NCBI GenBank assembly: GCA_965279305.1
Contig: OZ257143.1
Span: forward strand, 510,001-542,000
Reading direction: 5' to 3'
DNA from: Gammaproteobacteria bacterium
GTDB lineage: Bacteria > Pseudomonadota > Gammaproteobacteria > JBIOEC01
Length of the DNA stretch: 32,000 bases
Part shown: positions 22,660-24,771 of the stretch, in pieces
How positions within the stretch are numbered: position 1 is the stretch's first letter
Layout of the letters: every line of letters begins with the position of its first letter
Position numbers and translations under genes: made by a program
Notes under the pieces: generated by a model
Seen by the model: only the letters and a program-made list of their open reading frames with translations
Databases searched by the model: none
What the model was told of the DNA's origin: nothing

Positions 22660-23091
22660 ATGCCAAGTCCTATTGATACAAGAAAAATTGATGTGGTGGG
22701 GAAAGTTTTGATTGCCGCCTCATGGCTTGACTTAATGAACATAGCGCCTGATTCTTATCGAAGCGTTTCTTACTTTATTGCAGCATTTGGGGCATGTGTA
22801 TTTTTCTTAGGAAAGATTTTATCTTATACTCACCCTACTAATTACGCACCTAATCCCGTGGCCAAAACATGGGAACAAACAGGAGCTGCATTAATTTTAT
22901 TCGCACCGGCTTTTATTTCTAAACCAGCATTTGAAACCTTAAGAGAAAACCCAGAACTGCCTACGGTGCTAGCCCTTTTTGCGCTAGGATTACTCACCAT
23001 GCTAACAGCAAGATTAACTGCAAAATATCAGCAACAAAAAGCCACTCTACCACCACCACCTTATCAACATTTATTAGCTCCAGCCGCCTAA
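22660..23091 (+). CDS. Small 4-TM membrane protein, paralogue 3 (143 aa), Pro-rich C-terminal tail
   Basis: Paralogous to 22219..22641 at both protein and nucleotide level. It ends ...ATLPPPPYQHLLAPAA. Its stop codon touches the first base of the trkH-derived repeat. Confidence 0.75.
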   Translation: MPSPIDTRKIDVVGKVLIAASWLDLMNIAPDSYRSVSYFIAAFGACVFFLGKILSYTHPTNYAPNPVAKTWEQTGAALILFAPAFISKPAFETLRENPELPTVLALFALGLLTMLTARLTAKYQQQKATLPPPPYQHLLAPAA

Positions 23092-23186
23092 TGTTAACTC
23101 CGCCAGAAAGCCGGGGTGAATAAGACGAGAACGGTGAAGATTTCTAAACGACCCACTAGCATGACAAAGCAAATAATTAATTTAGC
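23091..23186. repeat. Direct repeat copy 1 (96 bp), derived from the trkH 3' end
   Basis: 91 of 96 positions are identical to 24676..24771 in my hand alignment, in the same orientation, 1585 bp apart. Confidence 0.95.
23094..23186 (-). pseudogene. trkH: Detached trkH 3'-terminal fragment (last 30 codons + stop)
   Basis: The minus strand translates to AKLIICFVMLVGRLEIFTVLVLFTPAFWRS*. The intact TrkH C-terminus is AKLIICFAMLVGRLEIFTVLVLFTPAFWRS*. There is no upstream trkH coding sequence attached. Confidence 0.9.
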
Positions 23187-24480
23187 CTGGACTTTGCTGA
23201 GCACCTGGAGGAGTGGTGGGTGGTAATGCAAGTCTTGATGTGGCTTTTGCGAATGGAGAAAGTTGGAATATAAAATCTTTTACTACATTTAAACATCTAC
23301 TCACTACCGCATAAGTGTTGCTTGCAAAAACAGTTGCTGAGTTTTTTTCTTGAGAGGTGGCGGCATCTTTAATTTTTATACCTAAATAAGGAATAGCAGC
23401 TGTAAAAAAGGTAACGATGGCCCACGTTGCAACAGCAGCTACTGTCACAGCAAAACCAATAGCAGCTAATGGTACAGCAGCGGCCACTGCGCTAGTAGCA
23501 AGCAAGGTAGTAACCACTAAGAATGCCATATACCAAGCAAAGCCTGTTACAAATTCAGTTACGAAAGTAGCGGCCAAGGTAGGATAATCCACTTTTCCTT
23601 CCCGCTGTTCTTGCCAATATAATGTTAAAGTAACACTAATCGCTTGGCAAAGCCCAATCAATATACCACCCACTAAAACGCCTAGAGGACCTCCTAGTAA
23701 AGGCATAACGACCAGAGTGGCAATATAAAAACCTATGGTCCAAAGCGCCATTCCATTAAATATTTGCCAACCCATATCAATAGCTCTTTTTCGAAATGCA
23801 CGACGTTCTGCTGGGTTTGCTTTTCTTCCTACTTTATCTTCGTAGCTCGCCAAATCCATTTGGTAACTCAGATAGGCTGTAATAGGTGCAATAATAAAAG
23901 GAAGAAATCCGGCAGCAATTTCAACTTCTTTTAAACTTTCAATATGATTAAATAAAGTAACACAAAGTGCCATCCACATAGCATCACCGGTACCAGAAGC
24001 AACAGCAGTATTAATGAGACCAGAACTGATCTTGTCGAAATCTTTTCCTATTTCTCGTTCTTTCATTAAATCGGCAGTTTCTTTATCCCAAACTCCCCAT
24101 TCATTAAAAAATGCTTTCACATCTTTATCTTGTGCATTTTTAATTTTAACCAATCCTCTCATTTCAATTCGATCAAGATGAGTATCGGCAAGTACAGCAG
24201 CATTATATTCAGCCACCGTTTTATACGTAGTGTAAACAGGTGTGTCATTCTCTTTTACTTTATCAACACATAAATAAATGACTTCTGTGCCAGGATGAGG
24301 GGCATCTGTTTCTGGAGCGGACTGGGTTTGCAATTCAACCTTACGGTCTTTATCAAGAAGAATAAACTCTAGGCCAAAGCCTAAGGTACCCCCACCATAG
24401 GTGAGTATGTTTTCTTTGAGTTGTTTTTCACTAACGCCTGGCAGCAAATCGGTTAGCCAGACTGGGTATGCACTAGGCAT
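23182..24480 (-). CDS. Orphan 432-aa polytopic membrane protein (soluble N-domain of about 150 aa, about 6-7 TM helices, Pro-rich tail)
   Basis: A long ORF with its own AT-rich upstream region containing an extended -10 (TGcTATAAT). The Ala/Val/Thr/Gly-rich hydrophobic core spans about residues 152-372. The tail reads ...LALPPTTPPGAQQSPG. The stop codon lies inside repeat copy 1. I do not recognise a family. Confidence 0.7.
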   Translation of the reverse strand: MPSAYPVWLTDLLPGVSEKQLKENILTYGGGTLGFGLEFILLDKDRKVELQTQSAPETDAPHPGTEVIYLCVDKVKENDTPVYTTYKTVAEYNAAVLADTHLDRIEMRGLVKIKNAQDKDVKAFFNEWGVWDKETADLMKEREIGKDFDKISSGLINTAVASGTGDAMWMALCVTLFNHIESLKEVEIAAGFLPFIIAPITAYLSYQMDLASYEDKVGRKANPAERRAFRKRAIDMGWQIFNGMALWTIGFYIATLVVMPLLGGPLGVLVGGILIGLCQAISVTLTLYWQEQREGKVDYPTLAATFVTEFVTGFAWYMAFLVVTTLLATSAVAAAVPLAAIGFAVTVAAVATWAIVTFFTAAIPYLGIKIKDAATSQEKNSATVFASNTYAVVSRCLNVVKDFIFQLSPFAKATSRLALPPTTPPGAQQSPG

Positions 24481-24675
24481 GTACTTCTTTTACAACCTTC
24501 TTCTTATTATTATTTATTCACGTAACTATTATAGCATTCAAATACATAAATAGATAATAACTGATTGAAATTAATAGTTTTTTGATGAAATAGAGTAAGA
24601 AGTTACAGTATATAAAAACCAAAAAAACTGTTATTACATATAGTATTTTTAAGTAGGAACCTTTCCGATGGGGTT

Positions 24676-24771
24676 ATGTTAACTCCGCCAGAAAGCTGGA
24701 GTGAATAAGACGAGAACGGTGAAAATTTCTAAACGCCCCACTAGCATGGCAAAGCAAATAATTAATTTAGC
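24676..24771. repeat. Direct repeat copy 2 (96 bp), the resident 3' end of intact trkH
   Basis: See copy 1. It begins 3 nt beyond the trkH stop codon and extends 30 codons into trkH. Confidence 0.95.

Follow-up and report, generated by a model that had tools for sequence, protein, structure and literature searches.

A 96-nt duplication of the trkH 3' end flanks a probable single-gene insertion in a gammaproteobacterial genome

The duplicated trkH end and its cargo gene

We analysed a 32,000-nucleotide (nt) stretch of the genome of a Gammaproteobacteria bacterium (GTDB lineage JBIOEC01; GenBank assembly GCA_965279305.1, contig OZ257143.1, positions 510,001 to 542,000), here called the window, in which a duplicated 3' end of trkH brackets one orphan gene. 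The plus strand carries parA, parB, glmU and glmS, followed by three tandem small paralogues of 156, 140 and 143 amino acids (aa) and then by a detached trkH end (copy 1). On the minus strand, copy 1 is followed by an open reading frame (ORF) of 432 aa, a 195-nt A+T-rich spacer, and trkH, trkA, rsmB, fmt, def and a malic enzyme gene (the last two names were taken from orthologues in metagenome contigs L006 and L004). The features of the locus, in window coordinates, are as follows.

19841 to 21670, plus strand: glmS, which is conserved and forms the left edge of the variable glmS-trkH interval
21727 to 22197, plus strand: small paralogue 1 (156 aa)
22219 to 22641, plus strand: small paralogue 2 (140 aa)
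22660 to 23091, plus strand: small paralogue 3 (143 aa), the last of the tandem small membrane-protein array and convergent on copy 1
23091 to 23186, minus strand: copy 1, a detached trkH 3' end with the last 30 codons, the stop codon (23094-23096) and 3 nt more
23182 to 24480, minus strand: the 432-aa orphan ORF (the cargo), co-directional with trkH
24481 to 24675, minus strand: the spacer between the trkH stop codon and the 432-aa ORF
24676 to 24771, minus strand: copy 2, the 3' end of the intact trkH, with the last 30 codons, the stop codon (24679-24681) and 3 nt more
24679 to 26130, minus strand: trkH, intact, 483 aa
23187 to 24771 (equally 23091 to 24675), minus strand: the inserted unit of 1585 bp, comprising the cargo ORF, its upstream spacer and one 96-nt trkH end; missing in both relatives described below

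The two copies form a 96-nt direct repeat (23091-23186 and 24676-24771) that is identical at 91 of 96 positions (95%), with 1585 nt from start to start and 1489 nt of unique DNA in between. An earlier reading of this DNA, made from the sequence alone, had described the pair as the last 30 codons of trkH with the stop codon and 3 nt beyond it, and both the repeat search and the translation bore this out. Re-alignment also returned the five differences it had listed. Four are synonymous in the trkH frame (copy 1/copy 2: ACC/ACT, CCG/CCA, ATC/ATT and GGT/GGG), and the fifth, GTC/GCC, exchanges Val for Ala, so that both copies translate to AKLIICF[A/V]MLVGRLEIFTVLVLFTPAFWRS followed by the stop. 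The edges of homology are sharp, with mismatches at 23090 versus 24675 and at 23187 versus 24772, and the longest uninterrupted blocks of identity measure 21, 23 and 22 nt. This is the sole direct repeat of at least 30 nt at high identity across the window. A 60-nt consensus pattern of it matched just two sites there and none in 100 shuffles, in keeping with the earlier description of a trkH-derived, two-copy repeat.

Copy 1 is joined to no trkH body, and we found no further TrkH-like sequence within 21600-24675. The sequence-only reading had placed it between the stop codons of paralogue 3 and of the 432-aa gene. That position holds and can be refined: the first base of copy 1 is the last A of the paralogue 3 TAA (23089-23091), which leaves the convergent stop codons 2 nt apart. 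At the other end, the stop codon of the 432-aa ORF (23182-23184) falls within copy 1, and the intact gene ends in copy 2, both as previously claimed. The full-length TrkH matches Pfam PF02386 (2.5e-80) and NCBIfam NF008020 (4.6e-152) and is 99% identical in amino acid sequence to a relative, P0003. Over its C-terminal 43 aa, which take in the copy 2 peptide, it matches TrkH of both relatives with 100% identity. The gene has been kept whole, with its last 96 bases duplicated around the insert.

The 432-aa ORF is an orphan membrane-protein gene. A hydropathy scan of its product found five hydrophobic segments between residues 186 and 350. An AlphaFold model from a single sequence was unusable (predicted local distance difference test [pLDDT] score of 43); a model from a 15-sequence alignment (mean pLDDT, 65) has a low-confidence mixed alpha/beta N-terminal region at residues ~1-150 and a helical region at ~153-417 with a confident core at ~155-330. 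Foldseek gave no match of the model to the PDB at an E value of ≤0.001, and the protein had no match in Pfam, NCBIfam, PHROG, PADLOC or plasmids and no homology to the small paralogues. Exact look-ups of this protein and of the window TrkH returned no record. An exhaustive HMMER search of 1.84 billion representatives yielded 15 proteins at an E value of ≤0.001, all of them unnamed metagenome singletons, and a JGI metagenome scan with the family alignment yielded 0 relatives. By tblastn, full-length homologues (36-42% identity) occur in just two metagenome contigs, L001 and L007, and neither adjoins trkH. The L007 homologue is an intact gene of 414 aa. The closest homologue, in L001 (1471-2745), is broken by an in-frame TAA near codon 37 and is either a pseudogene or the result of a sequencing error. 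On the contig with a distant homologue (P0132, contig L045), many ORFs without Pfam matches surround the homologue, and an 897-aa gene with weak Sel1 and leucine-rich repeat Pfam matches lies ~10 kb from it. Our impression, which we take as no more than that, is of a gene mix recalling host-associated Legionellales-type genomes.

The cargo has a GC content of 0.405, and its GC content at third codon positions (GC3) is 0.263, both inside the range of the neighbouring housekeeping genes. This native-like composition therefore points to the same or a related genome as its source. In the spacer upstream of the ORF, direct reading picked out TGCTATAAT (24536 to 24528, minus strand), which resembles an extended -10 element, lies ~47 nt ahead of the ATG and is a putative promoter of the 432-aa ORF. 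A consensus scan of the spacer gave only a weak promoter match (24634-24607) and no terminator-like site between trkH and the ORF.

Gene content of the window bears on how the insert might have arrived. Of 30 ORFs of at least 110 aa, 27 have other Pfam assignments, and three (paralogue 1, the 432-aa ORF and a 563-aa orphan) have no match; the two shorter paralogues likewise have none. No integrase, other recombinase, transposase or Tn7 gene was found among these 30 ORFs and the two shorter paralogues. We also found no terminal inverted repeats at the insert ends, no attC-like or other palindromic element at either cassette end and no tRNA gene in the window, where the sole Rfam match is a 6S RNA far from the repeat locus. 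A detached trkH end was seen neither at 37 other trkH loci from GTDB species-representative genomes nor in the related metagenome contigs. Double TrkH matches were seen only in contigs L018 and L020, where they lie ~1.45 kb apart, and we read them as tandem trkH paralogues.

The sequence-only reading had offered an att-like duplication as one origin of the repeats, and the lack of any integrase or recombinase gene speaks against this proposal. In its fuller form, the repeats would be the attL and attR sites of an island that targeted and restored the trkH 3' end and then decayed to a single gene, a remnant still mobilisable in cis. Direct repeats that rebuild a gene's 3' end, together with empty sites in relatives, are indeed typical of such islands, and SGI1, which inserts at the 3' end of trmE and restores it, is a described precedent (PMC8409611). 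The trkH locus resembles that case in the insertion at a housekeeping-gene 3' end, the restored frame, the direct repeats at both ends and the empty sites in relatives. Unlike such islands, the insert is only 1.5 kb long, holds a single gene and lacks integrase, excisionase and mobilisation genes; its repeats differ at five scattered positions instead of sharing a clean, identical core, and there is no recurrence at trkH in the other genomes. No recombinase was found in the cassette or in the rest of the 32 kb, the cargo composition is native-like, and a literature search found no paper describing trkH as an island target. We regard an integrase-mediated origin as quite improbable.

Empty sites in two related lineages

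Clustering of TrkH at 90% identity returned three members in ~15 billion proteins, namely, the window genome (a contig of 1,869,759 nt) and two metagenome lineages. We refer to the window's own lineage as W and to the relatives, both known from metagenome contigs, as R1 (L002 and L003) and R2 (L006). The relatives are 94-96% identical to the window in trkH, trkA and rsmB and are the sole related lineages in public data. A scan of a genome collection with TrkH peptides found no relatives, and one with a TrkH alignment placed the closest named genome ('MAG: Gammaproteobacteria bacterium GcC11-19') at 70% identity. A JGI metagenome scan with a 23-mer that is invariant in the four trkH ends gave 0 matches.

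Both relatives carry an empty site with a single trkH end, which the sequence-only reading had proposed to look for as a check on its 1.5-kb single-gene cassette between duplicated trkH ends. In R1, for which L002 and L003 gave identical sequences from two samples (94.2% nucleotide identity to the window over rsmB-trkA-trkH), 14 nt separate the trkH stop from that of the convergent, directly abutting 156-aa gene, which is the paralogue 1 orthologue (74% aa and 85% nt identity). R2 is represented by a 59-kb contig that is 94.4% identical over 7318 ungapped nt. In this contig, glmS is followed by a divergent paralogue 1' (40% aa identity), by a paralogue 2 orthologue (83% aa identity) that directly abuts the trkH stop, and then by convergent trkH-trkA-rsmB-fmt, with 13 nt between the stops. 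No detached trkH end, 432-aa homologue or paralogue 3 was found within the R1 or R2 contigs. Past the trkH stop, R1 and R2 have the same short flank (TAACATTCTCT...), though the neighbouring paralogues differ. In the window, the matching junction with the last paralogue is occupied by copy 1, less ~11 nt of spacer; copy 1 would therefore be the piece left in the ancestral position, with the insert lying between it and the trkH body. At the end of the R1 contig, a repetitive extragenic palindromic (REP)-like palindrome (GTCATTCCCGC...GCGGGAATC; L002 4455-4495) lies upstream of paralogue 1, at the position of the glmS stop in the window; this palindrome is not present in the window.

Over 2902 aligned nt, we counted 120 differences between W and R2, 167 between W and R1 and 169 between R1 and R2, which gives the tree ((W,R2),R1). 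Given this tree and a cassette in W alone, parsimony favours a single gain on the W branch over two losses. The opposite history, in which the common ancestor had the fragment and the 432-aa gene and R1 and R2 each deleted them (for instance, via the 96-nt repeats together with paralogue loss), is improbable in our judgement, and evidence can be cited for it. Deletion between repeats is mechanistically easy. With paralogues 2 and 3 being old, R1 must in any case have lost both and R2 have lost paralogue 3, unless W gained them, and the R1 and R2 flanks past the last paralogue resemble the ribosome-binding-site spacers between paralogues. Set against this, two or more independent losses would be needed, and repeat-mediated loss would leave paralogue 3 against trkH with a TAATGTTA junction, whereas R1 and R2 have another flank in common. 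The copies also bear W-specific substitutions that R1 and R2 lack.

Misassembly, whether of the window or of the contigs from the relatives, deserves mention since assemblers can go astray at repeats and the relatives are known from short-read metagenome contigs. The copies differ at five sites, however, and the R1 sequence is identical in two independent samples. A path that skipped the repeat would join trkH to paralogue 3, whereas R1 and R2 join it to paralogues 1 and 2 via a distinct spacer. We consider the chance of such an artefact negligible.

Origin of the two copies

Comparison of the four trkH ends gave the following numbers of differences over the 96 nt.

Copy 1 and copy 2: 5
Copy 2 and R1: 5
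Copy 1 and R1: 6
Copy 2 and R2: 7
Copy 1 and R2: 9
R1 and R2: 5

Both copies read CGG AGT where R1 and R2 read CGT AGC (two substitutions), which argues that both come from W's own lineage or from a very near donor. Copy 1 alone has ACC (ACT in the others) and the GTC Val codon (GCC or GCT, Ala, in the others), and the residue at this position is Ala or Gly in 10 of 10 TrkH relatives inspected. Two fourfold-degenerate sites have three states each, and one site groups copy 1 with R1 and copy 2 with R2. By these comparisons, copy 2 appears slightly nearer to the relatives, with the sole replacement change on the detached copy, and both copies, at the 3' tip, look like products of the W lineage.

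The excess of synonymous differences had led the sequence-only reading to suggest that the copies diverged as functional trkH ends in different genomes. We modelled local duplication with copy 1 neutral and copy 2 accepting synonymous changes only (omega of 0.03, as observed in trkH; kappa of 1 to 4). The probability of at least four of five differences being synonymous was 0.07-0.13, which fails to reject a local origin, and the likelihood ratio in favour of both copies having been constrained was 2-5. Together with the W-specific substitutions common to both copies and the Val on copy 1, these values leave the suggestion weak.

A donor-derived end would mean that the cassette came from a genome with the 432-aa gene just downstream of trkH and that the copies are orthologues that diverged while functional. 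Besides the synonymous bias, three observations agree with such a donor. The copies differ by 5.2%, similar to the level between lineages; homology stops precisely 3 nt beyond the stop codon of trkH, where a donor and a recipient with different downstream sequences would be expected to part; and the mosaic structure of trkH shows that imports from relatives happen. Lineage-specific substitutions in trkH occur in runs, for example, six sites unique to W at 25344-25273 and seven unique to R2 at 25262-25242 (window 24676-25400 compared with L002 and L006), a pattern that suggests frequent homologous imports among related lineages, as would occur in a recombining population. Evidence on the other side includes the two W-specific derived sites that both copies carry and R1 and R2 lack and the position of the only nonsynonymous change on the detached copy. 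Between W and R1, trkH diverges evenly along its length (2-10 per 100 nt) without a jump close to the 3' end, though the W-R2 count per 200 nt rises to its highest value (16) in the 200 nt adjoining the stop; similar counts recur further along that alignment. No genome with trkH adjoining the 432-aa gene turned up in the searches. We think a donor-derived end unlikely, though worth keeping in view. A foreign trkH end is not required by the data, though a closely related donor would be compatible with them.

We favour, as the probable explanation, a homology-dependent insertion-duplication in the W lineage, for example, by a Campbell-type single crossover of a small circle. Such a crossover yields exactly the A-B-A layout of the locus, A being one unbroken stretch of the resident gene that extends just past its stop. 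A 1.5-kb piece consisting of one orphan membrane-protein gene and its own upstream spacer would have entered 90 nt upstream of the trkH stop by an event after which the insert was flanked on each side by the last 96 nt of trkH. The circle would have carried the insert plus a short trkH-end segment and recombined with the chromosome; a one-ended homologous join combined with an illegitimate join would give the same layout. This scheme builds on the observed repeat, gene layout, empty sites in relatives, phylogeny and lack of recombinase genes. The intermediate may have been circular or linear, and the dependence on RecA, the promoter activity in the spacer and the non-function of copy 1 are all presumed.

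That copy 2 keeps TrkH full-length is probably the reason that the insertion was tolerated. The duplicated segment reaches the stop codon, and the protein therefore remains full-length, whereas an unrestored insertion 30 codons from the end would truncate it. Selection would thus filter for the outcome that restores TrkH. Copy 1 would stay at the old junction with the convergent paralogue array as an inert, slowly decaying relic and would supply the TAA of the 432-aa ORF by chance. Loss of the cassette by recombination between the repeats, as the sequence-only reading had envisaged, is plausible. The perfect blocks, at just 21-23 nt, lie at the minimum length commonly cited for efficient exchange by RecA in E. 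coli, so the rate of such loss should be low.

Several points weigh against an insertion-duplication in W. Searches of proteins, genomes and metagenomes found no donor or intermediate, and the three closest relatives of the cargo do not adjoin trkH. The polarity of gain versus loss would rest on parsimony over three taxa, two of them relatives. Since paralogue 3 is also unique to W, at least one more event is needed, either a loss in R2 or co-acquisition, and a RecA-type crossover inside just 96 nt is inefficient. The synonymous bias leans weakly, at the likelihood ratio given above, towards both copies having been constrained. Finally, the divergence between copies is as large as that between lineages (4.1-5.8%), and it would need either neutral decay of copy 1 over about half of the W branch or a diverged donor. 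On a hand-estimated, back-of-the-envelope clock, the W branch amounts to ~1.7% substitutions per site in constrained sequence and ~7% per neutral site, and all the counts fit an insertion about halfway along this branch with copy 1 decaying neutrally thereafter.

Known systems and the glmS-trkH interval

The region downstream of glmS, attTn7, is a classical insertion hotspot, and the variable interval here does start right after glmS. An insertion of Tn7 at this site was considered and rejected: there are no tns genes or Tn7 ends, and the duplication is of trkH, not glmS. Unlike a transposon or insertion sequence, the insert has neither a transposase nor inverted repeats at its ends, and a duplication of 96 nt is far beyond usual target-site duplications. 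It also differs from an integron cassette in lacking an attC-like palindrome and an integrase and in having its own long upstream spacer.

The closest parallels come from homologous exchange. During conjugation in E. coli, single crossovers of circles carrying part of a lacZ-end fragment placed 109-950-bp duplications on either side of the insert, and such crossovers were far more frequent than true homology-facilitated illegitimate recombination, a process in which recipient DNA is deleted (PMC3240628). As in these Campbell-type products, heterologous DNA at trkH lies between direct duplications of one contiguous piece of a resident gene; one duplicate still completes the gene, and the other stands apart from it at the former downstream junction. 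Such an insertion requires no dedicated recombinase and can be undone via the repeats, and related genomes retain the uninterrupted site (a single trkH end adjoining a paralogue in L002/L003 and L006). Unlike the lacZ-end cases, this was a natural event with only 96 nt of homology, the duplicated piece reaches the stop so that the target is intact, and the repeats have diverged by 5%. [quoted passage not shown] The trkH locus resembles these in having a conserved gene as the anchor, genes added beside it, a displaced 3' fragment downstream and a hypervariable interval between conserved genes. In homology-facilitated illegitimate recombination, trkH would be the anchor on one side, and a microhomology joint, if there is one, would lie on the other at 23186/23187, the junction of the 432-aa ORF and copy 1. 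The locus differs from the classical process, which usually deletes recipient DNA, in showing a duplication, and from the T6SS/Rhs immunity arrays in that no toxin or immunity function is evident.

Hydrophobic proteins of 140-156 aa are arrayed between glmS and trkH in all three lineages (window 21727-23091, L002 3952-4422 and L006 2141-3022), with at least 1, 2 and 3 genes in the three known lineages. Among 5.8 billion protein clusters, this small-paralogue family is represented by five members, all from W, R1 and R2, and paralogue 3 was found in W alone. Paralogues 2 and 3 have 25-47% aa identity to the other paralogues and would be old duplicates. Orthologues in the array are just 74-83% identical, compared with 99% for TrkH. 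A spacer, AAAGAGGAGTACTTTTATG or a close variant of it, precedes most of the array genes.

The C-terminal tails of the small paralogues and of the unrelated 432-aa family are alike in being Pro/Ala rich (LPP...P-A or P-A-A). The tails lie at the following positions.

Window 23185-23230, 22600-22641 and 23050-23091
L001 2700-2745
L007 2070-2112

At the very C terminus, ...P-A or ...P-A-A is found in close homologues of the 432-aa protein and in most small paralogues (paralogue 1' of R2, with ...QPT, is an exception). The 432-aa ORF ends in ...SPG, with its TAA taken from the trkH-derived GCTAAA. The joint may, as a weak suggestion, have clipped the native last codon or two of the ORF. The common tail could be a sorting or secretion signal or could reflect compositional convergence.

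Elsewhere in the window, a 563-aa orphan ORF (14798-16489, minus strand) has no match in Pfam, PHROG or PADLOC, and its GC content (0.326) and GC3 (0.191) are markedly below those of its neighbours; by composition, a foreign origin would be likelier for this ORF than for the trkH cassette. The 6S RNA (1426-1625, plus strand; Rfam RF00013, 64 bits) lies immediately upstream of, and overlaps, the called start of a 5-formyltetrahydrofolate cyclo-ligase ORF, which is the classical ssrS-ygfA arrangement. A PIN-domain protein (VapC-like toxin; 8142-8519, minus strand) has only short ORFs around it and is probably part of a toxin-antitoxin pair. The exonuclease VII large subunit (6348-7958, minus strand) has an extra N-terminal DUF5710 domain.

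The trkH locus is a tidy, ordinary recombination scar of a Campbell-like kind, not a new kind of mobile element or a new mechanism. It offers a clean natural case in which an essential-type gene took up another gene within its end and yet stayed intact, and the leftover copy lets the order of events be reconstructed. The glmS-trkH interval is fast changing in a barely sampled clade, with three gene contents in three lineages, and the locus holds two protein families that are almost missing from public data. A more far-reaching idea, to which we give little credence, is that in this uncultured, small-genome gammaproteobacterial clade the interval may be a slot for the exchange of lineage-specific membrane proteins (the small paralogues and the 432-aa family), with cassettes carrying the trkH end as a portable homology anchor. 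If that were true, cassettes would enter and leave by general recombination without an integrase, as a minimal 'homology-anchored cassette' system.

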